Positions 6,607 to 30,999 are shown, counted from the stretch's first letter. The stretch: 64,000 nt of DNA from Eutreptiella sp. 'Long Island Sound 2002' (GCA_964036045.1 OZ038378.1:38068001-38132000), one strand, 5' to 3'. Translations and numbers: made by a program. Notes: generated by a model from the letters alone, not told the origin.

Positions 6607-8172
6607 CTATGTCTGAGGAAGCAACACTATGACAGTCAATATGGCATTGTATAAATCATGTTGTATGCTCTTTAGTACTTCCCATTTGGGGGGGAAGGGT
6701 AGGTACACTAGTTTGGGTAGAATCACTGCCTTAATGGTATTGGTTCTTAGTCGGTAAGTTAAAGGTTGATTGTGTAGGCAATTCACGGTTGCTCTTGCTT
6801 TGGTATAAAACTCTTTGTATGTTGTGTGTGGGCTCATATCACTCGGAACAATGTGACCTAAGCGTGTGATTGTGGGGTACTTTTGAGATGTGATTGTTGT
6901 GATGCCTTCAACTGGTTGATTCTAGGGAACCAATGTGTTGAGGGTGCCCATTTGGTTACCCGGATCGATTACAAGCCAGCCAGCGGAAATGCTTGATGTC
7001 ATAGGCATAGTGATATCTATGCTAGGGGGATTATGGGAATGTGTGTGGTGGAAACCATAGAGTTTAATTTTGTTGTTCACCGCCATGCCCATTCGTTGCA
7101 AGGTAGTACAAGAGATGTCGAGGGCATTTTGAGCCTCGTCTTCATAATCGATGACTCGCGTAGCATCATCCACAAACGAAACCGTATCAATTTCATTCTT
7201 TTCGAGCACAGTCACTATTATCCGGTACAAGAGGATGAAGCACAGTGCTGCAACAGGGCAGCCTTGTTTGACACCAAGGAGAGGAGAGTAATATTTGTTG
7301 TCACCCATTTTGACCCTGAATTCCGAGTCCAAGATCGTATTCCCAATGAATTATAGTACTTTTTCATCGATTCCTATTTTTCTAAGCGAGGAGAGCACTA
7401 AGTGCACATGGAAGGACGAGAAGGTATTGGTGATGTCTAACAATCAAACGTAGTCGTGGTCAATGTTGCTCAACTTTTTGGGGGAGTAGTTTTGGAAGAC
7501 CAAGGGTAGCCATGACAGTGGGTCTTCCTCTTCCCCCACCGACCTGTTGGCCCAGCCGCACCTCTCAATCACCTCTTGTAATTTGTCTCTAACCGCTGTC
7601 ATAACGATCTGACAGCAGGCTTGTGTAACACTAACTAGTCTCCACCTTGATGCAGTTCTCCAATCGACCGATCTTTTGTAAAGTGCTACGGTGGATGTTT
7701 GTGGTGTGCAATTGGGCAACATACCTGTGGCTAAGGTATGTCTTACACTATTTCATACTATGTGGAATGTACTCTATGGTAAAACATAAAGGGCATATGG
7801 TGGAACTCCATTGGGCCCTGCCGCTTTCCTCCGTGGGACTATAGCTAATTTTCTAATGCATTCATAACTAAGTTCTTCATGTTGAGCAGTCTCATTTTCT
7901 TCCTTCGTGAACAATTCTTCCACCCCCGTTGGGCCCCAGGGATTCCTTCCTCCCACAAGTTCGGCTTCTCCATGGGAAGGCAATGGTAAGGATGGGTAGA
8001 AAACGGGAGCAAACATATCTTGCTTTACTTGCCGAACAAATACTTTCGGGTTCCGTGCGGCACGTCTAGAAATGTTCTTGACCATTGCTTCCCAACCTTG
8101 TGGTGTTTTCTTTGGAACAGTCTTTTTGGTTTCATTTACTTGTTCCACTACCTCTGGTATGTTATCACGCAA
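6607..8172 (-). pseudogene. Non-LTR reverse transcriptase, multiple stops and frameshifts
   Basis: RKAAGPNGVPP (domain 0), GVKQGCPVAALCFILLY, VSFVDDAT (YxDD-like), VILPKLVY. Confidence 0.85.
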
Positions 8173-8699: not shown

Positions 8700-9110
8700 C
8701 GTGCAGTTCGTGAGGCCGCGCAAAGGTGACAAAGGCGAAACGGGTGGGCGAGGTGTGTGTCATGCACAAAGCTAGCAGATTGTCGTGCATCTTGCTTTGC
8801 GTAGTGCGCGTGAACCGCCAGAGGGGGCAGTGGCAGGGTGACCGGAGGGAGGAGGAGAAACAAACAACAAACAAGCCCACAGAACGAGGGGAAGGGGAGA
8901 AGGAGCAGTGAGGACGGGTTGCCTCGCAAAATGCTCTGCACAGTGCGCGCACGGATAGAGAGGGTAGGAGGAGGACGGGGGGCTGGGGTTAGGGCGGCAC
9001 GAGGCGGGACCCCGAGCAGCCAGGCACAGTAGTAGAAAGGTGAAGGGTGGGGCAGGGCAGAGTATGCCTCGTATGGTGTTGCGCACAGTGTCCTTGCATA
9101 GTGTTGTGCA
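8700..9110 (+). repeat. Non-coding spacer repeat, copy 1 (related to 11021-11235 and 11545-11930)
   Basis: Shared blocks gcgtgaa..c..gagggggcag, gagaagg and ggcagggcag.gt.tgcctcgtat.gtg. Confidence 0.65.
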
Positions 9111-11020
9111 TCTTGCGCGTTTGGAACTGCTGCACCCTGGTGAAGCCTTCGACCCTCTGGTTTTGGCTGACGACCCAAACACGTCCGCTCAGCTGAAGGT
9201 GAAGGAGATGAAGAACGGCCGCTTGCCTATATCTATGTTCGCCTACTACGTGCAGGCGCTCGCAACTGGAGAGGGTCCCGTAAAGAGCTGGGTCACCCAC
9301 ATTGCCAACCCATTCGCCGTGAAAGGTATGACTAGCGCCAATGTTACCCTGTTCGCTCCTTCCCCTGTGGCCATGCTAGCCACCGCTGCCTGGTATAGCC
9401 CTGAGCGCAACAAGTGGTTGGGCCCATTCTCTGATGCCTTCTCCCCTGGCTACCTCACTGGTGACTACCCTGGTGTCTGCGGTTGGGACGCTGCCGGTTT
9501 GGCTGCTGACCCTACCACCCTCGCCGCGTACCGTGAGGCCGAGTTGACCCACGCTCGTTGGGCTATGTTGGGCACTTTGGGCTGCTTGACCCCTGAGTTG
9601 TTGGCCAAGTACGCTGGTGTGGGGATCGATGAGGCTGTGTGGTTCAAGGTAGGTGCTCATATCTTCCCTGAGGGCGCTCTGGGCTACCTTGGCAGCTCCA
9701 ACCTGGTTTACGCCGATACCATCCTTGCTTTCGCGGCCTGCCAGTTTGTCTTGATTGGTGCCTTTGAGGCCTACCGTGTGACGGGTAGTCATGTACGCGT
9801 GATTCTCCATCTCCTCCGCCCTGGTGAAGCCTTCGACCCTCCCGTTTTGGTTGACGACCTTGACACTTTCGCTGAGCTGAAGGTGAAGGAGATCAAGACC
9901 GGCCGTTTGGCTATGTTTTCTATTTTTGGCTACTACGCGCAAGCCATCGCGACTGGAGAGGGTGCCGTTGAGAGCTGGGCCTCCCACATCGCTCACCCAT
10001 TCGCCGTGAAAGGTATGACTAGCGCCCGTGTTACCCTGTTCGCTCCTTCCCCTGTGGCCACGTTCGCCACCGCTGCCTGGTATGGCATTGAGCGGAACAA
10101 GTTGTTGGGCCCATTCTGTGATGCCTCCTCCCCTGAGTACCTCACTGGTGAGTACCCTGTTGATTACGGTTGGGACGCCGCCGGTTTTGTTGCTGAACCT
10201 ACCACCTTCGCCGCATACCGCGAGGCCGAGTTGACCCACACTCGTTGGGCTATGTTGGGCACTTTGGGCTGCTTGACCCCTGAGTGGTTGGCCAAGTACG
10301 CTGGTGTGGGGATCGATGAGCCTGTGTGGTTCAAGGCAGGTGCTCATATCTTCCCTGAGGGCGGTCTGGGCTACCTTGGCAGCTCCAACCTGGTGCACGC
10401 CCAGTCTATCCCTGCTATCGCGGCCTGCCAGTTTGTCCTGATGGGTGCCTTTGAGGCCTACCGCGTGAAGGGTGGTCCTCTGCGCGTGAATCTGTATCTG
10501 CTCCACCCTGGTGAAGCCTTCGACCCTCTGGTTTTGGGTGGCGACCGTGACACTTTCGCTGAGCTGAAGGTGAAGAAGATCAAGAACGGCCGTTTGGCTA
10601 TGTTCTCTCTTTTCGGCTACTGCGTGCAAGCCATCGCGGCTGGTGAGGGTCCTGTTGAGAGCCTCCCACATCGCCTACCCATTCGCCGTGAAAGGTATGA
10701 CCAGCGCCCATGTTACCATGTTTGCTCCTGCCCCTATGGCCACGTTCGCCACCGCTGCTATATGGCCGTGAGCACAACAACTGGGCGAGCCCATTCTCTG
10801 ATGCCTCCACCCCTGCCTACCTCACTGGTGAGTACCCTGGTGACTACGGTTGGGACGCCGCTGGTTTGGCCGCTGACCCTACCGCCTTCGCCGCATACCG
10901 TGAGGCCGAGTTGATCCACGCTCGCTGGGCTATGTAGGGCACTTTGGGCTGCTTGACCCCTGGGTAGTTGGCCAAGTACGCTGGTTTGGGGATCGATGCG
11001 TCTGTGTGGTTCCAAGCTTT
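9110..11020 (+). pseudogene. lhcb: Chlorophyll a/b-binding (LHCII) polyprotein units, type 1: partial + 2 near-complete + partial unit, ~685-bp period
   Basis: [61 protein letters not shown]; linkers SPVAMLA/SPVATFA. Frameshift near 10670, stop at 10935, substitutions at conserved sites. Confidence 0.9.
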
Positions 11021-11235
11021 GTGAGTGTCTAACAGGTGGCCAAGGTGCGTGTTGTGCAACCTGCTTCGCAACTTGTCATGCATAGTGCTACGCATATTGC
11101 GTGAAAACCACTGGAGGGGGCAGAAGCAGGACAATCAGAAGGCAGGAGAAGGTGAGGGCAACAGCAACAAAGGTGCCCAAACAACAGTGTGCCTCGTATA
11201 GTGTCACGCGTAGTACCTGCAGCAATGAACTGGCC
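11021..11235 (+). repeat. Non-coding spacer repeat, copy 2 (internally deleted)
   Basis: gtgagtgtctaacaggtggccaaggtgcgtgttgtgcaac... is near-identical to the sequence from 11545 onward. Confidence 0.8.
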
Positions 11236-11548
11236 TTATGTGCAGCACGGTGCCTGACCTCCGAGCTGCTGCAAAAGTACTGCTATCGGCAATGGTGCCA
11301 CCAAAGGTGTGTGGTTCAAGGCTGGTGCCTCCACCCCTCAGTACCTCAGTGGTGGGTACCCTGGCGACAACGGTTGGGACGCCGCTGGCTTGGCCGCTGA
11401 CCCTACCGCCTTCGCCGCATACCGTGCGGCCGAGTTGATCCACGCTCGTTGGGCTTTGTCGGGCACCTTGGGGTGCTTGACCCCTGGGTTGTTGGCCAAA
11501 TACGCTGCTTTGCGGTTTGATGCGTCTGTGTGGTTCCAGGCTTTCTGA
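11236..11548 (+). pseudogene. lhcb: Chimeric LHC fragment (type-2 piece fused to type-1 N-terminal half)
   Basis: [13 protein letters not shown] joined to [33 protein letters not shown]. Confidence 0.75.
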
Positions 11549-11930
11549 GTGTCTAACAGGTGGCCAAGGTGCGTGTTGTGCAACGTGCTTCGCAACTTGT
11601 CATGCATAGTGCTACGCATAGTGCGTGAAAACCACCGGAGGGGGCAGAAGCAGGACAACCAGAAGGTAGGAGAAGGTGAGGGCAACAACAACACACGTGC
11701 CCAAACAATGGGCGCGGACAGGGAGAGGGAGAGGCGAGGGGACGGGTTTTGCTTCGCACATTGCTGGCACAGTGCATGCAAAGACGGAGGGGAAGGACGG
11801 AGGGGTGCGGATAGAGCGCCATGAGGTAGGACGCCGCACGGCCAGGTGCACGGGTGAAGGGGCTGGCAGGGCAGGGTGTGCCTCGTATAGTGTCACGTGT
11901 AGTGCCTGTAGCAATGAACTGGCCTGCGGT
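11545..11930 (+). repeat. Non-coding spacer repeat, copy 3
   Basis: ctgagtgtctaacagg...gcaatgaactggcc; contains the blocks seen in copies 1 and 2. Confidence 0.8.
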
Positions 11931-14100
11931 GCTGCACGGCCGCTGGGCTATGTTGGGGACACACTGGTGCCTAACCCCCGAGGTGCTACAGAAGTACAGT
12001 GCTACCGACAATGGTGCCAGCAAAGGTGTGTGGTTCAAGGTTGTTGCCATGATCTTCGAGTCTGATGGCTTGAACTACATGGGTGCCCCCGTGGTGGTGC
12101 GCGCCCAGTCCATCCTAGCCGTGTTGGCCTGCCAAGTTGTCCTAATGGGTGCCATCGAGGCTTACCGTGTGAACGGTGGTCCATTCGTTGGACGTGACCT
12201 TCATCTTGGGTACCCTAGTGGCAAGCGATTTAACCCTTTGGGTTTGGCTGATGAACCTGATGTGGCTGCCGAGTTGAAGATGAAGGAGATCAGGAACGCC
12301 CGTTTGGCTATGCTCTCCATGTTCGGCTACTACGTGCAGGCTGCTATCACCGGCCAGGGCCCTGTTGAGAAGTGGGCCTCCCACATTGCTAATCCGTTTG
12401 TGGTGAACAAGTAAACCCTTGAGATTGCCACCCAGCCAACGCCATCTGTTGCCATGTTCACAGCTGGTGGGACGAAGAAGGCCGCCGCCCCCAAGGTAGA
12501 TTTGTTGGGCTCGTATGGCCTTGACTGCAAGAAGTGGTTGGGCCCTAACACTGCGGGCAGCAGCGTCCCAGACTACTTGACCAGTGAGTACCCTGGTGAC
12601 TACGTTTGGACAGCGCTGGCCCTGCAACAGACCCCAAGACCATCGAGCACCTCCGCGACGCTGAGGTGCTGCACGATCGTTGGCCTATGTTGGGTACTCT
12701 TTGGTCCCTAACCCCCGAGCTCTGCAGAAGTACAAAGCCATCAACAATGGTGCCACCAAAGGTGTGTGGTTCAAGGCTGGTGCCATGATCTTCGAGTCTT
12801 TTGGCTTGAACTGCATGGGTGCCCCCGTGTTGGTGCGCGCCCAGTCCATCCTTGCTGTGTTGGCCTGCCCAGTTCTCCTGATGGGTGCCATCGAGGCTTA
12901 CCGTGTGAACGGTGGTCCATTCCGTGGACATGATCTTCATCTGGTGTACCCTAGTGGCAAGCGATTTAACCCTTTGGGTTTGGCTGACGAACCTGATGTG
13001 GCTGCCGAGTTGAAATTGAAGGTCATCAGGAACGGCCGTTTGGCGATGCTCTCCGTGTTCGGCTACTGCGTGCAGGCTGCCGTAACCGGCCAGGGCCCTG
13101 TTGAGAACTGGGCCTCCCGCATTGCTGATGCAGTTGCGATGAACAGGTTGACCATTGAGATTGCCACCCAGTACACGCCATGTGTTGCCATGTTCGCAGC
13201 TCTTGGGAAGAAGAAGGCTGCCGCCCCCAAGGTGGATTTGTCGGGCTGGTATGGCCCTGCCTGCAGGAAGTGGTTGGGCCCTACCATTGCGGGCCGCTAC
13301 GTCCCTTACTGCTTGACCGGTGAGCACCCTAGTGACTACGGTTGGGACAACGCTGGGCTTGCAGCAGACCCCTAAAGCCTCGAGCGCCTCAGCGAGGCTG
13401 AGGTGCTGCACGATCGCTTGGCTATGTTGGGTACTCTCTGATGCATGACCCCTGAGCGGCTGCAGACGTACACTGCCGTCAACAATGGTGCCACCAAAGG
13501 TGTGTGGTTCAAAGTTGGTGCCATGATCTTCGATTCTGATGGCTTGAACTACATGGGTGCCCCCGTGTTGGTGCGCGCCCAGTCCATCCTTGCCGTGTTG
13601 GCCTGCCCAGTTCTTCTGATGGGTGCCATGGAGGCTTACCGTGTGAACGGTGGTCTATTCCGTGGACGTGACCTTGGTCTGGTGTACCCTAGTGGCAAGT
13701 GGTTTGACCCTCTAGGTTTGGCCGACGACCCTGATATGGATGCCGAGCTGAAGCTGAAGGAAATCGGGAACGGCCGTTTGGCAATGTTCTTTGTGTTCGG
13801 CTACTGCGTGCAGGCTGCCGTAACTGGCTAGGGCCCTGTTGAGAACTGGGCCTCCCACATTGCTGATGCAGTTGCGATGAACAGGTTGACCCTAGAGATT
13901 GCCACCCAGTACACACCATTTGTTGCCATGTTCGCAGCCGCTTGGAACAAGAAGAAGGAGGCCGCCCCCAAGGTGGATTTGTCGGGCCGGTATAGTCCTG
14001 ACCGCAAGAAGTGGTTGGGCCCCAACACAGCGGACAGCTACGTCTCAGACTACTTGACCGGTGACTACCCTGGTGACTACGGTTGGGATAGCGCTGGGCC
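11925..14100 (+). pseudogene. lhcb: LHCII polyprotein units, type 2: ~3 units + partial, ~737-bp period
   Basis: [43 protein letters not shown]; linker TP(S/C/F)VAMFAA..KKAAAPK at 12448, 13184 and 13922; stops at 12412, 13373, 13439 and 13829. Confidence 0.9.
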
Positions 14101-14445
14101 AGCATCACCATCTTCAATCTCGTCTTGTGCTTATGCTTGCTGCTTTGTTTCTTGGTTGCTACAGTGCTGCCCCCCTAGGAGTTGTGCTTGCTTGTTGCAT
14201 TGCCGCTGCTTTGCCATGCCTTGCCCCTTACCCCGGCGGTACAACGGGCCAGCACTACAGTTGCCACTGCCCCCGAAGCATGGTTGGCCGGTATCCCCGG
14301 TCCTCTGGGTCCTCCGTCATGCTGTGGGCCACCTGAGGCAGCCCCGGGACCCACGAGATGGAGCAAGGCAGGAACCACCTGTCGGTGCAAGGTGCCCGGT
14401 AACTCCAGTGGACGGCATGATAAGTGGTTATGACTATGACTATGA

Positions 14446-14461
14446 CTACGTAGGTTGTGCC
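14446..14461. repeat. Right target-site duplication, preceded by (TATGAC)3 tail
   Basis: tatgactatgactatgac then tacgtaggttgtgcc. Confidence 0.85.
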
Positions 14462-15070
14462 AGGGTATATACGTGTTCTTGTGTATGTGGGGCGGGTGTT
14501 ACATACCTAGCAATAGGGGTACCAAAAGTATCGATTTTCTTTTGTTGTTTGTAGCCATTTCTATACATTCTTTGCTCAGGTTGTGGCATCGCTATTTCGT
14601 GTACTGACATTCCAATCACCCATGAATTGGGCTAACTTACTTCGAAAATTGGGTTTCCTAATAGACGCGCTTGATGAACCATAAAGGCCAAATACTTGGG
14701 CGGGCAGAAAGTTGGGATCACCATGAAGGGGATTTTCGAAACTTATCATTCTACCGGGCATATGGACGGAGAGCTTTGGTTTCTTGGGTCCTTCTAGATT
14801 AACATGTACAAGCATAGCCACCCCGCCGATAGGATCCTGTGGAAATGATACTAAATGATATCCATGTTCCATGGATGCTCTTTGATACAATCTTTCCAAT
14901 CGTGTGTTTTGCCTATGTTCTGAGATGCATATAACTATGTCATGTGGTAATGCATATAACATTTCCACCAACCCATCCAGGGGGAAGGAAGGACCTCTTG
15001 CAATGAAGGTGGCAAAGGAGATCATTCTTCCTAGCGCAAGGTGTTGGCCGCTCTGCATTTGGGCGGGAAT
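14462..15070 (-). pseudogene. N-terminal/central APE endonuclease of the minus-strand LINE
   Basis: DIVICISEH, GGVAMLV, FGLYGS, FMGDWNV, RPTYTRTRIYPG. Confidence 0.85.
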
Positions 15071-16119: not shown

Positions 16120-16560
16120 ATTTATCGTTGGACGGATAGATCATCGAAGCGACCACAAATGGGAGGTGACTAGCTGGGCGGGTATGGAGTATGTTTCCCT
16201 GATCGTCCAGAGTGCAATGTTTCGGAATTCATACCAGTGTCGTAGTCATAGACCATAGGCAGCAGAGAACTCCAGCAGTGTTGAAGGGATTGTACGAGGT
16301 AACAGTGTACCGACGGACCTGTGTGATGTGCGATTCTGAGTATATTGTCGATTGTTGTAATTTGTGGGCAAAGCAATGGCACTACAATACTTGGTGCACT
16401 GCGGCTGGGCCATTGGCCCATGCAAAGCTACGGAAATTTTTTTTCATTTTGGTGGAGTCTTATGGAACACTCGTGACAATGTATCATGTGCCTTCACATG
16501 CGGAACGGACAGAAAATGAACGCGTTGATGATATGGCGAGGCAACGTAGGCTGAGAAGTT
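16120..16560 (+). pseudogene. RNase H (RNase HI-like) domain of a retroelement, disrupted
   Basis: WTD(R)S (16129), GYGVCF..NVSEFIP..T..REL, CDSEYIVDC.N.W..QW..N.W, HVPSHAERTENERVDDMA. Confidence 0.85.
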
Positions 16561-17145
16561 CCTTGTGGACTGCCAACAAGCTCTTGCTCACAGTGCATGA
16601 GCAGAGGGAGAGGGAGGAGGCAGGGCTGCACCTTCACATTGTTGCGGTCAGGGAGAGCAGGCCGCTGCCGGAACCCGATGATTTTGTACCATGCACACCG
16701 GAGTCAGTTCAAAGCAAGGCCGGCTGCAGCGTGATAGTGTGTCCACCAGATGTAACGCGGCCCTCAAACAGAGTTTTGAGCAATTTGGATACACCATTGC
16801 CACATCGCTCACAAGCCTTTACGGACTTTGAAGTGTTGTGGGTAGCATGTGCAACATGTGTGTACCAGCTAAACGCGTTGTACATACACGAGCACCAATG
16901 ATGTACCAAGCCAATAAATGACCAAAAGGCATCCAGGGACTTCAGCAACATTGGACAATATGAATTTTCGGACCACATTGGAGGGGTTGGTACCTTGGTT
17001 GATGAAAACCAGGTGAAGGCCAAGTGGTTGCTACCCTGGATCGGTTCCAAGGTGTGCTAGCCCGAGTCACATGCGGAACTGACAGAAAATAAACGGGTTG
17101 ATGAATTGGCCAGTCAAGGTAGAATGAGAAGTCCACTCCCAACAA
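16495..17145 (+). repeat. First ~1.1 units of the 572-bp RNase H-derived satellite
   Basis: tcacatgcgg..gacagaaaatgaacg.gttgatga at 16495 recurs at ~17068; the unit is contiguous with the RNase H ORF. Confidence 0.85.
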
Positions 17146-17172
17146 TGGGGTGCAGCCAAGGAAGGGTGGCCT
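17146..17172 (+). repeat. Left TIR of element B (outer 27 bp; its last 15 bp form the LINE TSD)
   Basis: 26/27 match to the reverse complement of 37589-37615. Confidence 0.9.
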
Positions 17173-18549
17173 CCTTTCTGAGTGTCTATTTTTTTTCGTG
17201 TCTATTTTTTTTCGGTGCTATTTCTTCGTCCATGGAAGACCCCAACGTGGGGCAGAATGCAATGCCGCACCTCCCGGAGGTGGCAGAGATCTACCCGACC
17301 GTCCCGGCCGACATACCTGCCGCCCTCGGGATCGGATGGACGCACCTCTGTCGAAGGAGTTACTGGTACGACCACCGCTCCACTTCCGACCCCTTCGACT
17401 CCAATGAGAGCAGCAACTGTCGCCACGCTGGAAAACTACGTGCAGGCCTGGGCCACTACTGAGGACCCCAGCGATATCAACGACCAAGCACCTCACAACC
17501 TGGCCAACTGTTTCAACCCCCTGGACCTCTCTGACGATCCCGGGACCATCACTGCGCAGAAGGGGAACGAGACCAAGTACACCTGCTTTAACCCAGCGAA
17601 AGACGAAGTCATCGACAAGTCGGGCGTCCCGAGGACAGAGATTGACGATGCCGAACAACGACAGGCAATCATGGAGACGGCCACCAGCCAGGATATCAAG
17701 TATGCCCCCGATACATCTGCCCTGCGCAACGCTATGGAAGTCGGCGAAGTGATGGACACGGCTGAGACCACAGAGGTCAACGAGAACGCATCTGACGAAT
17801 TACCCGGAGCCTACAATACTATGGAGATCCACTGTGAGGATGATCCGCCAGCCATCGAGTTCAACTCCGCCGCAGTCGCCCGCCACTCAGGCCCGAGGAT
17901 AGAACGAGACCGGATGCCGGAAGATGCACCGCTGCGAGCCAGGTTTGCCTCTCTCCCAAACGGGTCCCAAACGGCGGTGCAGAGCACAGCTCCCCGCCAC
18001 GACGACGACAACCAGCCACCAGACACAACCGACAGGACAAAGAACAACATGACGGCGGTGCGGAGCCCTGCTCCCCGCCCTTGGCACACCACCGTACGGC
18101 ACAACAAAACAAATTCACGGAGGCCACGACCCCTATGCGTTATAGGATTGATGACACACATCATCCTGTTCCTGCTACACAACGGAGACAGCGGAGCGGA
18201 GCCCTGCTCCTCGCCAACCAACACCACCAACCTGACAATGTACCAAAACACAACGACACATCACGGAATGGCCAACGGCGGAGCGGAGCGATGCTCCCCG
18301 CCAACAACGCCAACCGCAGTGACGGTGAGGAGCCCTGCTCCCCGTCCGCGCCATGACCCAAACCACACCATACACGCTGTGCATGACACCGTAACAGTGC
18401 TACACCAACGACTGGGCATACACCCTGTGTTGCATATAACACCGCTGCCATTGCATATACCGCCATGCTCGCACACTAGGAATAGCCGCAAAACGGCGTT
18501 CTCGCATCGATCCACCCCCCCCTCCCAACCCCACCCTGCGTGGCGTTGT

Positions 18550-18777
18550 AGGTCGGTGATCGTGAGCGGCGCCGGAACCCTGGTTTGCCTTCCGGCAGCC
18601 AGGTCAGTCAAAGGCATCAAACATGCCCTCCATCACCTCACGCCACACCTACCCCCACCACAACACCAGCGGCTGTTCTACCAAGGACAGCCGCTCGGAG
18701 ACCACGACCCGACCCCGACCACGACCACAACCGGACCCATCCACCTGACGCTGCGACTGGTGGGTCTGAAGGGAGGA
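18550..18777 (+). other. Ubiquitin-like domain ending in di-Gly
   Basis: 76 codons: ..SVKGIKHAL..LPPPQHQRLFYQGQPLGD..IHLTLRLVGLKGG, compared with ubiquitin IPPDQQRLIFAGKQLED..LHLVLRLRGG. Confidence 0.7.
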
Positions 18778-18799
18778 GGCAGACGGTCGCAGAGAGACA

Positions 18800-18878
18800 C
18801 AGACAGCGACAGCACCAGCGACAGCACCAGCGATAGCGACAGCGACAGCACCAGCGACAACGACAGCGACAGCTACAG
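18800..18878 (+). repeat. (ACAGCG/ACCAGC) low-complexity repeat encoding a Ser/Asp/Thr tract
   Basis: gacagcgacagcaccagcgacagcaccagcgatagcgac... Confidence 0.8.
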
Positions 18879-20958
18879 CCGACGGAAAAAGTCTCGGAAG
18901 CGCAGCTCCAAGGGCGAACTCACCCAGGCTCTGAGGGCCATGACGTCCCTTGCGGACTCTGTGGCAGGAATCTGCCGGTCGATCCAGCAACCACAGCAAA
19001 CTGTGACGCATGAGGCCCTAGCGCCACAGCACAGCGCTGACAGACACAATGACCAGGCCCGCACCCAGGCAGAACCGTCACAAGGCGAGGCGGCACCACA
19101 GGCACGACGACGCTAGTGCGTGAGCATCGACACGCGCCACGGGGAACGACAAGTCTCCCTGCATGAACCCGGACAGCAGCCTCAACACCCACCCCTCTGC
19201 CCCCCAACTCCTGTGGCGGAACCGCTGCGTTTCTACCACAATCCTCACAGCCCGGAGGTGCCATGTGCGGTCCCTGCCCTCCAACACGGACACAGGGACG
19301 TAAACCGACGGCCCCTCGCACAGCAGGCGGCCACACGCATGGAATGCACGGCGGCGCAGCCGGTGTACCACAGTGAACCACTGTATGTACCACAGACACA
19401 GCACGAAACACAGGTGCAGTATCGAGCAGTCGTCGACCACCATGGACAGCACATACTGCCAGAGGACAGTTCAGGAACCTGGGCCAGGTTCAGCGAGCAG
19501 AATGCAGCTGCGCTCGAGATCCTGCGAACCGAGCCACCGATGCAGCGACGCACAGATGCCGAACCGGCAACGGGATATCCGGAACATGTGGCTCTCAAGG
19601 GATCGCACACGACCACCGGCGGACCCGCATGCCCCCCGCCAACAACCAACGGACAGTGTTGTCTATCCGATTCCCGAACCGGCGCCGGCAGCGGGGCACC
19701 CACAACAGCACCAGCAAGTGTACTACACACCGGACGCACCAGACCAGCACCCCGTGCACCAGCCCGGACCCCCTCAGATCCACGGGGAAAGGGCACCGTG
19801 GCACGGTGCACACGCAGAGCAGGCACCAGAACAGGGACCGGAACCATCCGGCTGGGGACAGGCTGGGGTTTTCCCCTTCACTGGAGGCTGGGACGTGGTG
19901 GCCGCGCAACAAGAACAGCAGGCACCCCCCCGGCAGCCGCGAGGAAGGAGGCGCCGACCCAGGACCCACAAGGGGGAACTGGGGACGGTCATCCCCAACA
20001 TCCCCACCATTCCACACCCTGACCAACGAGATACCGTGTCACCTGATGTGCTGGTATGTGCATACATAAGCATGAGGGGAACAGCGGGAGAATGTGGCTA
20101 CCTTCCCAACACCTGCCTTGCGCCATTCTCCACAGTGAACAGCCGGAACGGACAACCTGGAACGGACCGCGTCGACCGCACGGTGACCGCACGGTGGCAA
20201 GTCGGCCGTAAGGATTTTGCTCCTCAGACATGCACGCTAATGACTGGTGCCGCAGGCACCCACTCGGCCGGGACCTTGGCCACTGCCTACCAAGCCGCAG
20301 TTTATTTGCCCGGGTACACTTGCGTGGGCGCTTTCTTTGCCCCCGGTGATGCTCGGCGTGCTGACCAGCAACGGACAGCACAGGACAGCCAGACAGGAAT
20401 GTCATATATGGCCCCAACCCGGCCATCAACAGCACGGGACCAGACAGACAGGCAACGGGCTGCGAAGGCGACAAGCCGTGTGAACGTGCCCACCTGCCGA
20501 CCATGCGTGTGGATGGCAGGCGCTACTGGCACCCACACGGTTGGGCCCTTGGCCACCGCCTATTCTCCCGCTCTACACACCGGTGTGGGCGCGCCCGACG
20601 CCCCCGGTGATGCCCAGTCTGCTGACCAGCGACAGGCAGTACACGATAACCAGACAGGAATGTCATATATGGCCCCAAACCGGCCATCAGCGCGCGGGGA
20701 CGCCGCGCAGGCCCCGACTGACGGGCATCGGACTAGACAGGCACCTGCGACAATGGCCAGAATACACGCATTTCCTGGATCAGATCCCTTCGTGCTTTTG
20801 CCACAGTATCGTGAGGTACCCCCCTACCCCTCGGGACACCCCCCCCCCTCATGGGAGAGGAACTGCCTTGCGACCCACCATCTAGGCAGGCACCCCCCAA
20901 CAATCGACAACACCCCCCCGCCCTCATTGGGTTGTTGCGGGACCGCACGGTCGACGGT

Positions 20959-20982
20959 GATATCGAAAAGAACCCGGGGCCT
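20959..20982 (+). other. 2A-like StopGo motif 1 (LLRDRTVDGDIEKNPGP)
   Basis: Matches D(V/I)ExNPGP. Confidence 0.85.
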
Positions 20983-21645
20983 GAAGATGCGCGGACCACA
21001 GGGAACGACATCCCCCCCCAGCACAGAGAGATGGTCACCCGGCTGGCTAGCGAGATCGAAACGGCCTCCAACCCCCACTACCCCGCTAAACTGTACAAAT
21101 ACGCGACACAGGCACTCACGGAGGCACTGCAAAGAAAGCGACGCGCATCCACCCCTCCCCTAGGACACAACACACCCGCACCACGTGCAGAATCGTCTTC
21201 CACACATGGCACGTTGGAGGTGCCATCACCAGAGGCACCCCCGGTGCACGGGATACATGACCCAGGCACACCACGACCCGCCCCCTTGGAAACTTCCGAG
21301 TTGACTGTAAAAACACAAAAACACCACTTACCGGTAGGATTAAACATGACCACAGCCATCGATGTAGTTTGCCCCCGATGCAACATGGCCGACTTTGTGT
21401 ACTTCCGCTGCACCGGATTCAAGTATTTTGCCATACACCAACCCGATACCCCAGACTTGGTACCACGGCGACTCTACAACGTGATGTCCCCAGACCCCTT
21501 ATACCCACGACAAGAATCCTGGCAAGAGGCCATACCAGCCACCACCTCGTAAACCTACCACACGCCAGTACCACACGAGACGGGCCCCCAACCGACCGTG
21601 GAGGACACCCCGGACGGATGGTTACGGGACGTCACAAGTGACGGG

Positions 21646-21669
21646 GATGTCGAACCTAACCCCGGTCCC
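21646..21669 (+). other. 2A-like StopGo motif 2 (WLRDVTSDGDVEPNPGP)
   Basis: Matches D(V/I)ExNPGP. Confidence 0.9.
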
Positions 21670-22104
21670 AGCCCATCAACCCCCTCAGCGAAACGCACGC
21701 GATACAACCAAGACACGCTGCATATGTACCAAACACCTAGGATGCTACGCAAACACACCACGGACAACACTCCCCCCCGACAAAAACGGAGGCGCGCAGA
21801 CCACGTACCCATGGCGAACCAGGAACATCAAACGTCAACACTGGTATACAACCACCGCAAACGGAAGGCGGACGGGGAACCTACCCACCAACCGACACCC
21901 AAAAGGCACCAGAGCACGACCCACTGGGACGAGCAGCACCCCCCCGGGAACCAAGGAAACCTACGCATGAAACGGACATATGGAGACCCCACTGACCAAG
22001 TCAGGGGTGACTCACCACGCAGGAAGATCCGCCGAACACAACGCCTACGCAATCACCCTTACCCGAGACCAACGAGCTGGGTCCACGACCCGACTCAAGA
22101 CGGA

Positions 22105-22128
22105 GACACAGAGCCCAACCCCGGACCA
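22105..22128 (+). other. 2A-like motif 3 (WVHDPTQDGDTEPNPGP; V>T variant)
   Basis: Same W..D.T.DGD.EPNPGP pattern as motifs 2 and 4. Confidence 0.75.
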
Positions 22129-22302
22129 ACCACACCCGCAGTGGAACGCACAGCCCAGACCACACCGCCGGGGGACATGGGGACTGAGGTGCACAACGCT
22201 CTGCCGGCGCTCTTGCTGGCGGCACTACCACCCCGCCAGCCCAACGATGACGTGCACAAACACGCGTGGAACACGGATGACGGTGGACGGGCCCTAGAGG
22301 AC

Positions 22303-22413
22303 TGCCCCGTATGCTTGGACAGCCCCGCGGATACACGCCTGAGCTGCGACCCCAGGCACAGGCTGTGCCAAGATTGCGCCAACGACCCACGACTGCTACG
22401 ATGCCCACTGTGC
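22303..22413 (+). other. C3HC4 RING finger
   Basis: CPVC-x10-C-x3-H-x2-C-x2-C-x8-CPLC. Confidence 0.85.
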
Positions 22414-22881
22414 CGCGGCACTCTGCAACCAAAGATACCCCCCCCACCCCCGGATGACCCAACATATGCGTATTTCCACATACAAATCTACAACAACAGA
22501 CTCCTCACATACACGGATCACTGCGCAACTCCCAACCCGCCAGTGCATTTGGCATACAACTTGTGGAAGAGGCTTACTAGCACAACAGGCCAACTGTGGG
22601 AGGTACACCTCAGGACTGACCTCCCATACTACCACATCGCAAGACACAGAATGCATGTCCTCACGGGCACGAGGGAGGATTTCCAAATGGCCATGTCCAT
22701 ACGATACTGGCTCTTTCTGGCCCAACCCTTGCAACACGACCTGCTCCTGGAGTATGACATCACCGACTCGGTGCCACCCGACCACCCATCGGACGTACGC
22801 TATGACAGGATCACATCCGTTACCGCAGACGTGGTCTACCCACAACACACCCAATGGGTGCCGGATGCCACGCAGGATGGT

Positions 22882-22905
22882 GATGTGGAACCAAACCCAG
22901 GCCCG
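22882..22905 (+). other. 2A-like StopGo motif 4 (WVPDATQDGDVEPNPGP)
   Basis: Matches D(V/I)ExNPGP. Confidence 0.9.
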
Positions 22906-25523
22906 GATAGCAACGCCCCGCCCCATGGCATGGTGCGCACCCTGACAGAAAACTACGAAAGACACACGTCCGGGCTGCACACTAGTGTGCAAGACCAAGG
23001 GGACGAAATGGAAAACCCGGACATCCTGGAGTCAACCTCAAACCCCCCATCAGAGGATACCACTGAGCGGGAGCCCCCCCAGAATGGGGAACCTAGCACA
23101 CCACCTGACCAACGCACCGAAGGGCTTAGTTACGTCCCCCCTCCACCCCAAGAGGATACACAGGCGTACACATTCCACGAAGACGGCAACAAGCCACTGG
23201 ACAAACTACCCATACACACACCTACAGAGTACCAGCTCATAGAAGAACTCGTAAAGCTCAACACAGGCGCGTCACAACAACCACTGACAACAGCAGAACA
23301 AGACACATTGAAAGCATCAGTTGTGTACGACGCACAAACCAGGCTAAAAACGTACTTAACAAAGCACCCAAACCGTGCAGTGACCACAGAGCACATCTGG
23401 AGGCAAACACAGGAAGGGGTATGGTATGACAGGAACACCTACCAACTCCCTCTGTTTGCGCAACACAAACTGCGCGACGTCATGGCGGTGAGGCACGAGG
23501 CAGACTCTGACGGTATACACACGGTATCCGAGATGGCTGAGGCACACCAATACACAGTACACACGGAAGCCGACCATCAAGGGAACCCCGACATCCGGAA
23601 CAAGACATACTTACTACTGCCACATGCAACCGGGACCCGCCGCAACCATGAACGACGCATGCAGCGCGCCGCCATACAAACGGAATGGGGCGGAAGCGAG
23701 GACGAACGGGTTGACCAAGTCCTACGGGCACTCGGCGACCCGGGGGCCAAGGAGCTGATCCTGGCTTACGAGGCGGACCGCCAAGGAATAACAGCACTAC
23801 AAACCTACCGCATGGACTGCCTCCACCGCGCCCCCCTGCACAAACTGGCCCGCTATGTGAGGGGCGTATACCAATTCGACAAGATCCCCGTACGCAAGTG
23901 GTCCCCGGAACACGAAACAATGGTCGACCACCTACAACCCAAACCCATCATGGCCCTCCACCTAGACAACACCATAAAGATGGGACACGAGCCCACGCAC
24001 AAAACATACGCACTCACGAAGGGCACACCCATACAAGTGGGACTGGAAGACCGCACAGACACACTACAACCAGAACCGGCCAAGACTACAATCGTAGTGG
24101 AGTGCCCACCAAAAACGGGCATTAGGACACGAGACGCATTTATGAAACGGATCAACGGCCACCAGTCTGACGTCGCATCCACCATAGCAAGCAAAGACCC
24201 CCACAACACTTTTTGGTGGAAGTGCGCATCCGAACACACCGCGGGGCAAAGTGGGTCGCACGCCTGGAGACTACACCTGCCCATGCAATTGCTGCCTCGC
24301 TTGGCACAAGCACTGCAGACCATAAAACAAGAGAAGGAAAACGCCGGCAACCCTGGGCCCTACTGGCTCACCGAAACGGACTATGAGAGTCTGTATATAC
24401 TGAGACAACAATACACGGAACACACAGAAGACAGAATAACGTCCGTACAGGAGATACTGGACGACCTAGACAGAGAACAACTCGAGCTAGGAAGGAGCGT
24501 TGCATCCTTCCTCAAGGGGTTCCGACCAGTGGACTCATACCGTCTACTGGTACAGTTCCACCCAGACGCAGACCGACGCTTGATTGCCCAACTACTAAAG
24601 GGCATGAAAAGCTACGACGTGGTCCACGTGATGACCAACGTCATCCTCAACCGCAACAACTGGACACAGTCCACGAGCCGCTCTAGGGACATCAAGCGGC
24701 CACCAAAACCGACTAGGCGCGACACCACGACGGTGTTCGTAGGGTGGACACAGGGCGCAGGAGACGACACGGCGAAAGTTGTGGCATCATTCTTTGGATG
24801 CTGGACCAGCTGGAAGCCGGAACCCGACATGTGGAGCGACGCGGGCTGCACCTACGCCTCCCTACAATACCAGCACGCCACAGCAGTGGCCCTCAGTGCC
24901 GGACAATACATCGGAGTGGCACCCGGTGAATACGTCCACATCACGCTAGAAGACGACAACACGGATACACAGGCGGCAGAGCGCATCGACCGGATGCTCG
25001 CACACAAAATGCCGCAGGAAACGGGCGACGACGCGGCCTTCAGGAGACGAATGAAGGCAGGGAAACAACTGGGCTCAGACATGATGACTGAACGCGTCAT
25101 CAAGGAAATCAACAGGGAAAAACAGCTGTTCGCAGAGCCGGAACCCATCAACGTGGCAGACTGGGACGAGGCCATCCTGAACGAACTCGGCCATACCACT
25201 AACGACGACATCCCATCAGACACCCACCCAAAGACGGCCACCATGGACACGGATGTAACCCCCGTCTAGCAACCAGACAACCCGGCAAAATTAACCAAAA
25301 CACACGCACGGCAGCCAAACCCAGCACAGAAAACCAAGGCCCACAACAAGACACCACAGAAAACACCCACAAAAACAACGCCACCACCAAAAAAGAAGAA
25401 GGCAGCACCTGCATCGCCGCAATCCACACAACAAGCAGACAGTGCGCCTGCCTTCACCGTGGACAACAGACACAAGGGGAAAGGAAAGGGGCTGCCAAAA
25501 AACCCGCAGGGCAAAGGGAAAAA

Positions 25524-28500
25524 GTGAGGTGCCTGTTCCTCATGCCCTCCCTCGCCATTATGGCCCTCCTCCTACTCGTGGCCCCCACGCATACTGAGGG
25601 GCCGGTATATCTACTCCCCGTGAACCGGAGAGTCCGCAGACGATATACCCCGCCATTACGCCACGGGCACGGTTACGCACGGGGCCCCGACCCCCATAGT
25701 TACCGTATATGGCAGCCAGGCATACTCCTCCTCTATATCATCTGTTTCTTCCACACCCCGACCGCCCCTATCACGGCAGCGCCATGCCGCTACCATGCAC
25801 CTGTCACGATCACCAAGGTAACCAGCCCATATAACACGCGGTATAACACCAACTGGGTCCTCCAATGCGGAGACGTGCACCCCAACCCCGGGCACCGTAC
25901 GATACATCAGCTCCGGCGGGGATGCCGGGATGTGCGGGGACCCCCCATACCGTTACTTGACATTGAGGAGTATGCTCAACACTTGGTGGTGAACACCAAT
26001 CGACGGTATGACAGTCTAGACGACGCAACCACCGCAAAGGACCACGACATGAAACTGGCCTCCTGGAACATACAAGGAGCACAGGGATCCGTCAGTCCAC
26101 AACGCTGGGCCAATACCCTCCACCTAATCAGCCAGTGCCGTATCGACCTATGCGGCATCCAGGAGTATAACCCCGGTTTCCCTAAACCAGGGGCAGCCAC
26201 AACAGCACTCAACAACGACTACAAGTGCTACGCTGCGCCAGGGACCGAACCACGGATAGCTTTCATTGTCCGCAACGCTGTGGTCCCCCACATACTCGAA
26301 ACGTTATACTCACCTAACGGTTTGGCAGGGGCCATCAGGATACAGCTCCCAAACAGCCCCCCGCACCGTTGCGTGTGTATACTCCAAATTCAACCAACAG
26401 GACAAACAAGAGGTAGACCTATTTCTGCAGTCCCTGAGACCATACAACATCATTATGGGGGACTACAACGATGACATTTGGTCACCCAACCCGACACGCC
26501 CGTGGCAGGAAGACCTGGCCAGCGGAGTGTTCCTGGACCCTTTGCATGCTAGCAGCCAACCCCCGGACCCCCGGCAATACTATACCCGCAAACCTAGGCA
26601 CGGACGCCCACGTCGACTAGACGCCATCTTGATTAGGCAACAAATACCGAACATACCCTGGACCTACTATGACACCATACAGATGCCCATATCGGATCAC
26701 GCTTTGGTCCTGCTTGGGGTCCGATGGAGGATAGGGGCCCCCGACCCACCACGCAGAAAACCACAGCCCACAGTCGCGAAGTGGTATACTAAACAATTTC
26801 AACGGTCTACTAACACCATATCCACCCTACCCGTAACAAACAACGACCCACCTCTACGCACGGCACGACGGATACTATCGGCAATAGCGTACGCGGCGCG
26901 ACCACGACAACCCACACGCGCAAAGACAGCAACAACCGCAAGCTAGTCTGAAACCACGGACCCCAAAGCACGGTTACGAGAGTACGGGGAAATACAAGAG
27001 CAACACATACGGAGACAAGTCGGCAAACTGCGCCGAGCAGCAGTGCACAAATCGGGCTATTTTTATAAAATGGTCAAGAGATGGCGCACAGGACTCATAG
27101 CCCAAGACACACCGCGGCCCCCAATAGGAGGAACACAGTACGTACTCAACCACTTTGCGGGCGACCCAACATACGACGAAGACGCGTGCCGGCAACTCAT
27201 ACGGAAACATGTACGGCACCGCACGTGGAACACAACGACCCCCACATACGAGGAGTACATGCGGTGCCTTCGGGCACCAAAGAACAAATCTGCCGGACCT
27301 GACGGTGTCCCCCCACACCTGCTCCGGCACCTACCGGACCACGTGCAGCGGGAACTATACCAGGCAATCGTTGCAGTCTGGAACGGACAGCACATCCCAG
27401 TGGCTTGGCTGCAGTCCAGGGTAGTGCTCATCTATAAAAAGAAAGATCCTCAGGACCCACGAAACTACCGGCCAATCTACGTATCCACGGCCACATATAG
27501 TATACTCACACGCCTCCTCCTAACGCGTATATCGGGGGCCTTGCCCCCGTGATTATTGGACATACAACACGGCGCCACACAGGGCCGAAACACCACAACG
27601 TTAGCCACGAAACTATTAAACGACCTGCACGTTGAGGATGGATACGTGGCCCTACTTGATGTGGCCAAAGCTTTTCCTTCAGTCCCCCGGCCCATGCTGA
27701 CTGGGATCGTCAAGGAGGCAGGGGCTCCAGAAAACATCATACGGATGTTGGGGGAAATCTACCAGCATACACCGGCCGTACTAACCCTACACGGAAAGGA
27801 CCTACCCATGCAACCCACCAGGGGTATGAAGGAGGGGTGCCCCCTCTCCCCAACACTATTTCTCCTATACTACGACATACTGTTACGTGAAACCATGGAA
27901 CGGTGCCCGGGAGCCCGACTTTACGTGTTCGTTGACGACATAGCTGTGCGTGCGCCCACGAAGGAAGCATTGCTGCACACCCTGGATACCCTCCATGACG
28001 TGGCCTACACAATGGGGTTACGCTTCAACAAAGACAAAACTGAAGTGTGCCACTGGGCTAAGGACTACGACCTAACGCCCATCACGTGGCGGCATTAGCT
28101 CATCCCCGTGCGGCCACCTATAATGACTTACCTGGGGCATGTGCTTGCCCACCCCACACAAGAAGACACAGCATGGGACATGGTCACCACACAACTACAC
28201 CACGACGTAGCGGCGTACAGGACCCTGCCGCTCAACGCTTACGAAAAGGTGGCTATCATAAACGCCGTCCTTATCCCCCGTTGGACGTACAGGGGACTGT
28301 TCCTCGGAAATAGGACACGAATGGCGCACTGGGACGACATGCTGCTGCAGTTCATCAGGGATACACCCGGGGTAGAACCACAAATGAACAAACACCGGCT
28401 GACTACCAACCTCAGTCACGGGGGACTAGGCCTACGCCAGCTGTGGTGGTCCTACATCACCCGGTGGGTCACAATAGGCCAACAGGAACTGCAGCACACC

Positions 28501-30678
28501 GGCCCTACACAACAACTCACCGCAACCCAATATAAATACATAGACGCCGTCCGAGCCCTAGGGGGCACGGTGGGTCAGCGTATATCCCAACCCCGACAAC
28601 ACCGACCCTTGTCCGCGGGACTCTACGACTCGGAGAGCTCAGAGGAGGACCAGGAGACGCATGCAGGGAGGACACGGCCAGCAACCAACCGCTTAGACTA
28701 CAACTGGATGAACCCCCCTGAGGAACCAACCCCTGAGGAAACCCACGAGGTATGTCAGGCACTCCCCCACCGGCAAAAACTCCACGGAATCACCATACAC
28801 TACACAGGAGAACCCACCACCACCCGGTGGTACACAGACGGGTCAAAACGACACGGACGAGCGGGAGGGGGTATCTACAACTGAACATACCGGGCGGCCT
28901 TCCGGGTGCACGGGCCACAACAGGTTTATCGGGCCGAAACGATCGCTTGCGCCTTAGCTTCAGAGCTGGCCAAGCCAGGAGACGACATAATACTAGACAA
29001 CCGGAGTGTGGTGAAAGCCACACCTATAAAACGCAAAGGAGTGGTCAAGGACCAGGACTACCGCGACATAGGGTACCTCAACTCCACCACGAAACGACTG
29101 ACGATCCAATGGACACCAGGGCACCGCAATCTAGAACAAGCCACCACGTATAAAGACTACCAGGACATACAGGGGAACAACCACTCTGACGTCCTCGCCA
29201 ATATGGGCGACAACCTGCCCATGGATTCCCAACAACCACAACCCCATGATATTGTCATCACAGGACAGATCATGCCCACGCCTGCCAAGGCATGGATCAT
29301 GCAAGTGCGTAGACAAAAACAGACACCAGACGTACACTGGGTGAGCTGGCTCCCCATGAAGCACTACAGACGGAACGCGTGGACACCCTGGCTGTGGGGG
29401 CAAGTGCGCTGGTGGGGAATGGGCGCCCCCTGGGAACGGACACCCCGCCTCCGCTCCCAGTGTGGCCACCAACACGGAGCATCAGTACAATCAAAATTGG
29501 CTTACTCTCCTGCCTGGAGCGACTTCTGGGACCTGTGGCGCAAGAGCTGGACTGATTGGGCCCCATACACGCACCAATGGCTGCAAGCGGCCGACAACCA
29601 AGAGCTATGGCTCTGTGTCAGGCTGCTCATACCACTATCGCTCGTCGACGCCATACCCACTGCGGAACGACACAAACTGCGAACGGAGGTGGGCCTGTTC
29701 CAGTTTCGCATGATACAGTCCGTCCAAACACTAAGACGAAAGTACGCCGATCCAACACCACAACAACCACCGTAGGCCCTGTGGCTCACCAAATACATGG
29801 CACAGGCACTTCCGCCGCGAGAAACGCCCCAAAACCTACGGAACCACGTCGGGGCGCCCACGTGGTGCGGCGCGAAACGCAACCTTAAGGCCGAGGTCGC
29901 GACGGCTGACCCAATCGATCCCGGCCAATGGTTACAAGATGCACGCAACGCGGGCGATAGTGAGGCAGTGGCATGGTTCGTCGCACGAGCAACTAACACA
30001 GGGGAAGACGACCGCATCAATAAACGTCAGCGCCTCAACGGTGACACACAGCGGTGGGAACAGTACAAGACGACCACAGACAGGCTGGCACATGAACACG
30101 CTCAGCAAGCACGGGACATATACCACAAAGCACACATGGAGGCGGTGGCGAGACAACACCTGCACACCCTACACATGGGCTACACCAATGCACTGACGGC
30201 TAAAACAGACTACTACAGGCTTGTCATCAGACTAGTCGACCAACAGAGACAAGCACAACGACTGCATGACACACATGCACACCTATACCAAATACGTATG
30301 CAATGGTACGAACAAGCGAAGGACGACACACGGATGTGGTACGCCGACGCAAAACTGCTACTGATGGTCAACGACCGATACTGGAGGCTGAGCGCAGGCA
30401 CTGACAAGCTACTTGACCTGCACCATCAACAAGCGACCTACATGTGGTAGCAGCAGACACACCTTGCTGCCATGGCGCACTGCTACCAAGACGCCTGCAA
30501 ACACAAGACAACACAATACTGGCAAACAACCCGATCAGCCCGACGGACAATATACCTGATACGGAAGCGGCCGCGGGAGCACTGGGACCCCACCTTGTGG
30601 GAAGTCCCGTTACAACCGCTACCGAAACGCCACAAAACGCACTGGGACCCAAATGAGTGGGAAGTACCAGTGACATGA
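25524..30678 (+). pseudogene. LINE ORF2: 2A-like motif, APE endonuclease, reverse transcriptase, RNase H, long C-terminal extension
   Basis: VLQCGDVHPNPG(H) at 25872; LASWNIQG, CGIQE, IMGDYND, RLDAILI, SDHALV; KSAGPDG, NYRPI, LLDVAKAFPSV, GMKEGCPLSP, YVFVDDI; WYTDGS, RAET, ILDN, WTPGH, GNNHSD. One frameshift near 26360; in-frame stops at 26944, 27550, 28096, 28882, 29773 and 30448. Confidence 0.92.
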
Positions 30679-30831
30679 CTACACCAACCTCAATGGGAAG
30701 CCATGGGGGCACAGCCACGAGCTGCAGCCCGTATGCATACCCTGGCTTCGCCGAAATCTGTATCTTATCTAGTCTTGTTCGAACTTGGTCCACTTTGGCC
30801 CCGGGCACTTATGAACTGGCCTATTTGATCC

Positions 30832-30845
30832 AAAAAAAAAAAAAA
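30832..30845 (+). other. Poly(A) tail of the LINE
   Basis: A14 whose last two A's overlap the start of the right TSD (30844-30858). Confidence 0.85.
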
Positions 30846-30999
30846 GGAAGGGTCGCCTAGGAACCTGCCTCCAAATGACATGGTAGTGCACCGCTAAAGT
30901 GACGGACCACACTTATGGGGGGTGTTTTGGGGCTCAAAATAAGCGTATAGGAACTATCACGACCCCGGTGTGGGACCAAGGGAGTCAACTTTTTTCGGG

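Follow-up and report, generated by a model that had tools for sequence, protein, structure and literature searches.

Four conserved 2A-type motifs in the giant ORF1 of a Eutreptiella LINE, predicted to divide its product into five proteins

In this study we focus on a long interspersed nuclear element (LINE) that spans about 17173-30843, or 13.7 kb, of a 64,000-nucleotide stretch of DNA (hereafter the window) from Eutreptiella sp. 'Long Island Sound 2002' (GCA_964036045.1, OZ038378.1:38068001-38132000); all features of the element given below lie on the + strand. It is bounded on the left by a target-site duplication (17158..17172), 14 of whose 15 bases recur at 30844-30858 directly behind the poly(A) tail (tail and right duplication, 30832..30858), and self-BLAST found no terminal repeat of the element. 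With an apurinic/apyrimidinic endonuclease (APE) followed by a non-long-terminal-repeat (non-LTR) reverse transcriptase (RT) in its second open reading frame (ORF2), a poly(A) tail, a target-site duplication and no LTRs, it belongs to the LINEs. Its ORF1 (17232..25527) carries four 2A-type, or StopGo, motifs, and we consider it probable that the window holds a dead copy of a LINE whose family ORF1 is one frame, with four conserved 2As predicted to yield five proteins.

The motifs read LLRDRTVDG-DIEKNPGP (motif 1, 20932..20982, octamer at 20959), WLRDVTSDG-DVEPNPGP (motif 2, 21619..21669, octamer at 21646), WVHDPTQDG-DTEPNPGP (motif 3, 22078..22128, octamer at 22105, with a non-canonical T) and WVPDATQDG-DVEPNPGP (motif 4, 22855..22905, octamer at 22882). 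These positions and their shared frame are those of the original prediction, made from the DNA of the window, and its spacings of 229, 153, 259 and 874 residues were recovered as well. The pattern D[VIT]ExNPGP has exactly four matches in the six frames of the window, namely the four ORF1 motifs. No match arose in 2,000 codon shuffles of 17232-25527, the composition-based expectation is 3e-5 per ORF, and a chance origin is excluded. When the window was scanned with a profile of 23 viral motifs, no additional 2A emerged (127,894 positions; the four motifs score 29-46, the next position -2), although these scores are not independent, the viral set having been gathered with a pattern drawn from the element. 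The NPGP at 24337 (ENAGNPGP) was rejected as a fifth 2A; distant relatives keep only GP and an aromatic residue there.

Sister copies were read as predicted proteins and contigs of sequencing runs, not as full-length DNA. We aligned 46 close ORF1 proteins and dropped two out-of-frame rows; an unaltered octamer is seen in 6 of 7 rows for motif 1 (E to Q in the other), 8 of 11 for motif 2, 9 of 13 in-frame rows for motif 3 and 20 of 23 in-frame rows for motif 4; partial loss among close copies is expected, since the copies are decaying. The T of motif 3 occurs in all 13 in-frame rows and likewise in P0183 and P0215, both of which keep motif 2 with one change each. Nine diverged proteins covering a motif, out of 134 representatives, were aligned, and in seven of them the motif is better kept than its flanks (p 1e-5 to 7e-3; flanks 29-52% identical), as in P0269 (12/17 motif residues against 29% in the flanks) and P0183 (29/34 against 52%); motif 4 is kept in relatives at 29-45% flank identity. 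Compared with one another, the motifs agree at 10-14 of 17 residues, yet at only 29-35 of 51 bases, and motifs 3 and 4 encode 12 of their 14 common residues (out of 17) with different codons. Because the divergence is mostly silent and the motifs persist in relatives with 29-52% identical flanks, we conclude from these alignments that the four 2A-type motifs of ORF1 are real and selected. Conservation among copies, as the original prediction required, is seen in sister copies and, except for motif 1, in relatives.

Could the motifs instead be kept as protease or binding sites, or be inactive relics of tandem duplication within one large ORF1 protein? Motif activity is indeed predicted from sequence, and P0213, with two motifs 29 residues apart, shows that motifs duplicate. 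We nevertheless judge this very unlikely, as silent sites have diverged while residues are conserved, W, D, T, DG and NPGP are spaced as in viral StopGo elements, and the motifs sit in linkers between domains. Apart from this question, P0280, which belongs to a distant family, carries another kind of 2A immediately ahead of its core domain and, together with P0213, suggests that 2A number varies between subfamilies.

In the window copy ORF1 is interrupted by three frameshifts (about 17327, 19583 and 20838) and three stops (19114, 21550 and 25267) not found in sister copies, and ORF2 by one frameshift and six stops; this copy is dead. Relative to the window, contigs of runs X1, X6 and X2 have one base fewer at 17327 and at 19583 and two bases more at 26356 (in ORF2), and those of X1 and X2 one base more at 20838; the window indels are therefore not common to the contigs of three runs. 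With the contig indels at 17327, 19583 and 20838, the first AUG, all four motifs and the stop at 25525 fall in a single frame of 2,764 codons. At the three ORF1 stops, sister proteins matching the flanks have a residue in 15/15, 11/11 and 12/12 cases, counts that are biased because called genes are stop-free by construction. A single called ORF, that of protein P0042 (2,194 residues), extends over 18562-25290 and includes the four octamers, P0037, P0040 and P0052 likewise cover all four motifs, some of them damaged, and the overlapping P0145, P0139/P0141 and P0042 tile 17232-25290 in one frame. In the three long segments the coding frame has 1, 0 and 3 stops, whereas the remaining frames have 7-46. 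A family ORF1 of about 2,760 codons in one frame is thus supported by overlapping sister proteins. The single ORF of about 8.3 kb foreseen at 17232..25527 is therefore supported for the family, whose contigs and proteins give one frame rather than several independent ORFs, but not for the window copy, which needs three frame changes and contains three stops. ORF1 also contains an internal duplication (20255-20438 and 20528-20698, 74% DNA identity).

The published class A 2A core, (D/G/C/N)(V/I)ExNPGP (PMC12846837), is matched exactly by motifs 1, 2 and 4. Upstream, W, D, T and DG stand in register with the DLTxDG class, the L being replaced by R, V, P and A, and motif 2 is nearly identical to the viral class WV(R/K)DLTxDG, which has near 100% activity in vitro (PMC12846837). 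The same register was found at 22 viral loci, retrieved with a pattern drawn from the element, one of which reads WVPDLTVDGDVESNPGP where motif 4 reads WVPDATQDGDVEPNPGP. Among 7,992 candidates there were six matches, and the sole one outside the family, the coat polyprotein of a totivirus, has three 2As of this type. In Trypanosoma cruzi, another euglenozoan, T2A gives 80-90% separation (PMC10830525), and F2A has been used in Euglena, with no efficiency stated in the part of the source consulted (PMC8230907). We infer that the ORF1 motifs would skip with unequal efficiency, motif 2 being the best candidate and motif 3 the most doubtful.

Four cuts would give five predicted pieces of 1,249, 229, 153, 259 and 874 residues, not the "about six" ORF1 proteins of the original prediction, whose description left out the first piece. 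This piece (17232..20979) comprises a mosaic start with a decayed light-harvesting fragment, a candidate ubiquitin-like domain ending LRLVGLKGG (18520..18800; weak matches to Pfam ubiquitin, E 0.008, and NEDD8, E 0.018, but kept in sister copies), a Ser/Asp tract and a low-complexity region, and ends in motif 1. Piece 2 (20980..21666) contains CPRC...CxxC, a possible zinc site, and had no family match; the stop earlier noticed in it lies at 21550 and belongs to the window copy only. Piece 3 (21667..22125) is basic, as had been said of it, with 29 K+R against 15 D+E and four basic clusters resembling nuclear localization signals. Piece 4 (22126..22902) combines a domain of unknown fold with the RING finger already proposed, which Pfam matches at E 1.7e-4, though below the curated cut-off; the structural model of the piece (predicted local distance difference test score, pLDDT, 58.5) resembled no fold of PDB or BFVD at E 0.001. 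Piece 5 (22903..25527), with a conserved core, a predicted tandem RRM and a basic tail, has no Pfam match and is the most widely conserved piece, down to 27% identity. Its C-terminal 250 residues give a confident fold whose best Foldseek match is the U2AF65 tandem RRM (E 6e-5, low TM-score), and because of this match piece 5 is likely the true, RNA-binding ORF1p. The term "accessory proteins" would suit the architecture except for its last piece, probably an ordinary ORF1p; pieces 1-4 may act separately on host pathways.

Several observations weigh against one family frame divided by active 2As. In P0229 the motif is not significantly better kept than its flanks (p 0.08), P0182 retains only 4 of 17 motif residues, apparently out of frame, some short relatives were possibly found through the motif itself, and motif 1 was seen in close copies only. 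The model of piece 5 is weak overall (mean pLDDT 50.5), and its N-terminal half did not fold. RNA contigs from four metatranscriptomes cover 30, 25, 23 and 24 of 30 bins of the element with a 3' bias, with a silent control absent and no DNA control, and this coverage is not taken as proof of expression. Regarding the frame, no single sister protein contains the whole ORF1; at 20838, five of seven proteins reach motif 1 and two leave the frame, P0042 passes this point by two compensating shifts, and frame changes recur at a nearby poly-C tract. These frame data, together with the mosaic nature of the first 120-350 residues, would suit a shorter ORF1, its opening 1,249 codons representing in part 5' cargo that was captured, or else a frame of their own, with translation of the 2A-bearing region initiated at a more downstream site. 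We give this little chance, considering that the tiling proteins named above keep one frame through 17232-25290, that stop depletion is frame-specific throughout and that an AUG stands 17 nt after a relic spliced leader. On the side of activity, motif 3 misses the core by its T at position 13, where V or I is published, motifs 1, 3 and 4 depart from the DLT upstream region, in which changes can abolish activity (PMC12846837), of 580 retroelement 2A contigs in one screen no more than 43 showed high activity (10.64898/2026.09.24.754024), and 70% of ORF1p-linked 2As mainly lowered protein (10.64898/2026.06.17.732966).

In line with these last figures, the motifs might mainly be attenuators, at which stalling and drop-off produce a falling gradient along ORF1, little ORF2 and a mixture of fused and split products. 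Most tested retrotransposon 2As show reduced output or middling activity (10.64898/2026.09.24.754024, 10.64898/2026.06.17.732966), and the fixed non-canonical residues of motifs 1, 3 and 4 suggest a tuned efficiency. However, the RNA-binding core, needed in many copies, follows all four motifs, which would make strong drop-off costly, and this motif class is highly active in viruses (PMC12846837). Attenuation as the main role is thus unlikely, and separation into five proteins is preferred.

ORF2 (25524..30678, about 1,720 residues) has two candidate starts, a GTG that overlaps the stop of ORF1 and, 18 bases further, an ATG (25542). It contains a hydrophobic leader, a 2A-like motif, the APE endonuclease, the RT and what we take, by its motif, to be an RNase H-like region, for which Pfam gave no match. 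The sister protein P0086 matches Exo_endo_phos (3e-10) and RVT_1 (4e-25) in Pfam, and the PDB matches of ORF2 are R2 and LINE-1 ORF2p. The 2A-like motif, WVLQCG-DVHPNPG-H (25845..25895), lies 123 residues after the start; its DVHPNPG(H), as foreseen, is found at 25872 in the ORF2 frame, and it ends in PGH in 11 of 13 rows (one of them out of frame). A signal-peptide-like hydrophobic stretch precedes it (25524-25895). The motif departs twice from the class A core, with H at positions 14 and 19, and its profile score is -6 against 29-46 for the ORF1 motifs. Since H at position 14 is a rare functional variant (PMC12846837) and H at position 19 kept more than 80% activity in vitro in P2A, the motif may be partly active.

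The element begins with the last 25 of the 28 nt of the euglenid spliced leader (17174..17198), an exact match to the published Eutreptiella/Euglena leader (PMC3621762). It is followed at 17199..17228 by a relic leader, consisting of the exact 16-nt tail that comes behind the AG within the leader, and by a degenerate third leader-like tail, judged by eye. The distance of 17 nt from the relic leader to the first AUG is in line with short euglenid 5' untranslated regions. P0145 has one leader and a degenerate tail, and 4 of 304 proteins read through a leader, preceding three different ORF1 starts. As the target-site duplication encloses the leader, the leader belonged to the RNA that was copied, and the leader and relic leader at the 5' end therefore indicate that the element likely cycles via trans-spliced mRNA. 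In the likely cycle, read-through transcripts are trans-spliced at the AG of the old leader and then inserted anew. That the element had inserted into a leader gene was rejected. SLACS and CZAR, CRE elements targeting spliced-leader genes, insert into the leader sequence and are flanked by it; such an identity was rejected here, the leader being inside the duplication and absent from the 3' flank, and ORF2 having an APE. The leader-plus-relic arrangement was also observed on unrelated sequence in run X17, and suggests that retroposition of trans-spliced mRNA is widespread in the host. For the same reason the contigs with loose ends before 17174 (26 and 10) do not give a count of full-length LINEs.

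The first 120-350 residues of ORF1 differ among the 22 copies compared. Of 33 proteins matching this region, 3 carry a Pfam chlorophyll a/b-binding match in frame, of which a decayed form is present in the window copy; decayed light-harvesting fragments in frame, in some copies as tandem repeats, were observed at 17400-17600 and in P0143, P0154, P0166 and P0168. Further on, a 26-nt repeat in five copies (17973..18350) forms a bulged hairpin with a variable 3-nt loop and is translated in two frames; it has no Rfam match and is a possible RNA signal.

The family is large: 25 of 28 RT matches are 67-95% identical, one cluster has 236 members, and most members come from two coded organisms and estuary metagenomes, the nearest non-family RT proteins being 37-42% identical. 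Metagenome scans for relatives of ORF1 and ORF2 gave 16 and 17 pattern matches, none confirmed, and an Rfam scan of the element gave two matches, both at chance level. Elsewhere in the window, intronless, decayed light-harvesting polyprotein frames, possibly retrocopies, occupy 8968-14550; together with the spliced leader of the LINE, the light-harvesting frame suggests a photosynthetic euglenid as host. The minus strand holds a further non-LTR RT (6700-8100), decayed and with about 21% identity to that of the LINE family. An RNase H fragment (16203-16898, Pfam 1.5e-8) stands just upstream of the LINE, which may thus have inserted into an older element. A peptide-coding unit, PDLHIVGxxESTPPP, recurs at 44367, 53077 and 54793 and suggests another repeat family.

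According to the reading we prefer, the RNA would be trans-spliced to the host leader and ORF1 translated from the first AUG, the chain being cut co-translationally at the G|P of each motif with unequal efficiency. The last piece, with its predicted tandem RRM, would serve as the ORF1p that coats the RNA. Each of the four pieces before it (ubiquitin-like, Cys-rich, basic and RING) would have a role of its own, most likely directed at ubiquitin or silencing pathways of the host. Translation of ORF2 would be initiated through the stop-start overlap, and its hydrophobic leader may be released at the fifth, weaker 2A-like site. A bolder version, which we put forward only tentatively, is that of a promoter-independent giant LINE with virus-like expression, capped with a leader at each round and shuffling host light-harvesting fragments, in which four StopGo events, a possible ubiquitin-like cleavage and the StopGo of ORF2 give six or more proteins, including a RING ligase and further accessory factors directed against host control. 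LINEs are taught as making one or two proteins per RNA. If the preferred reading is true, a cellular retrotransposon runs a viral polyprotein strategy with accessory proteins and rivals the highest viral 2A count (five). Four natural paralogous 2As with fixed non-canonical residues would be material for StopGo rules, native 2As could be used for euglenid engineering, and the direct record of a LINE cycling via spliced-leader trans-splicing may explain euglenid retrogene formation.

Single 2As in LINEs are already known. A 2A-like motif stands ahead of the APE in L1Tc, Ingi, CR1, L2, Crack and Rex1 (Odon 2013, PMC3708506), as in ORF2 here, with some 90-115 residues between motif and APE; those elements have one motif each and are mostly without an ORF1, whereas here four more lie inside a giant ORF1. 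This large ORF1 also sets the element apart from the Ingi/L1Tc clade, characterized by a single ORF without ORF1 (PMC3708506), and L1Tc has unspliced transcripts from an internal promoter (PMC1874656), while the window copy starts with a spliced leader. One inactive 2A in an ORF1 has been published (PMC3708506; Luke 2013, PMC3894237). In ORF1p of tick, limpet and Nematostella (L2A-1_NVe) LINEs, a single 2A precedes the RNA-binding core, as motif 4 does here (10.64898/2026.06.17.732966), but it lies near the N-terminus and is inactive in L2A-1_NVe, whereas here four motifs separate domain-sized pieces. The architecture had been supposed undescribed; single 2As before ORF1p cores are thus published, and the claim stands for four in one LINE ORF1, which is new as far as our searches found. 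The literature compared, which included Rao 2025 (PMC12338488) and de Lima and Lanza 2021 (PMC8623073), gave no LINE with several 2As in ORF1, survey supplements and Repbase being outside the search, and no leader-capped euglenid LINE; the main parts of the four recent 2A surveys lack the word euglen, although their supplements could hold cases. RNA viruses with several 2As (Totiviridae coat ORF, e.g. P0034, iflaviruses and Avihepatovirus) share the upstream class WxxDxTxDG and the serial partition of a non-polymerase ORF upstream of the structural protein; no other homology was found, and the LINE lacks a capsid. Up to five 2As have been reported from a single viral genome. Finally, as in dinoflagellate retrogenes (PMC5585692), genomic leader relics mark the passage through trans-spliced mRNA; there retrogenes are marked, and here it is the autonomous retrotransposon itself.

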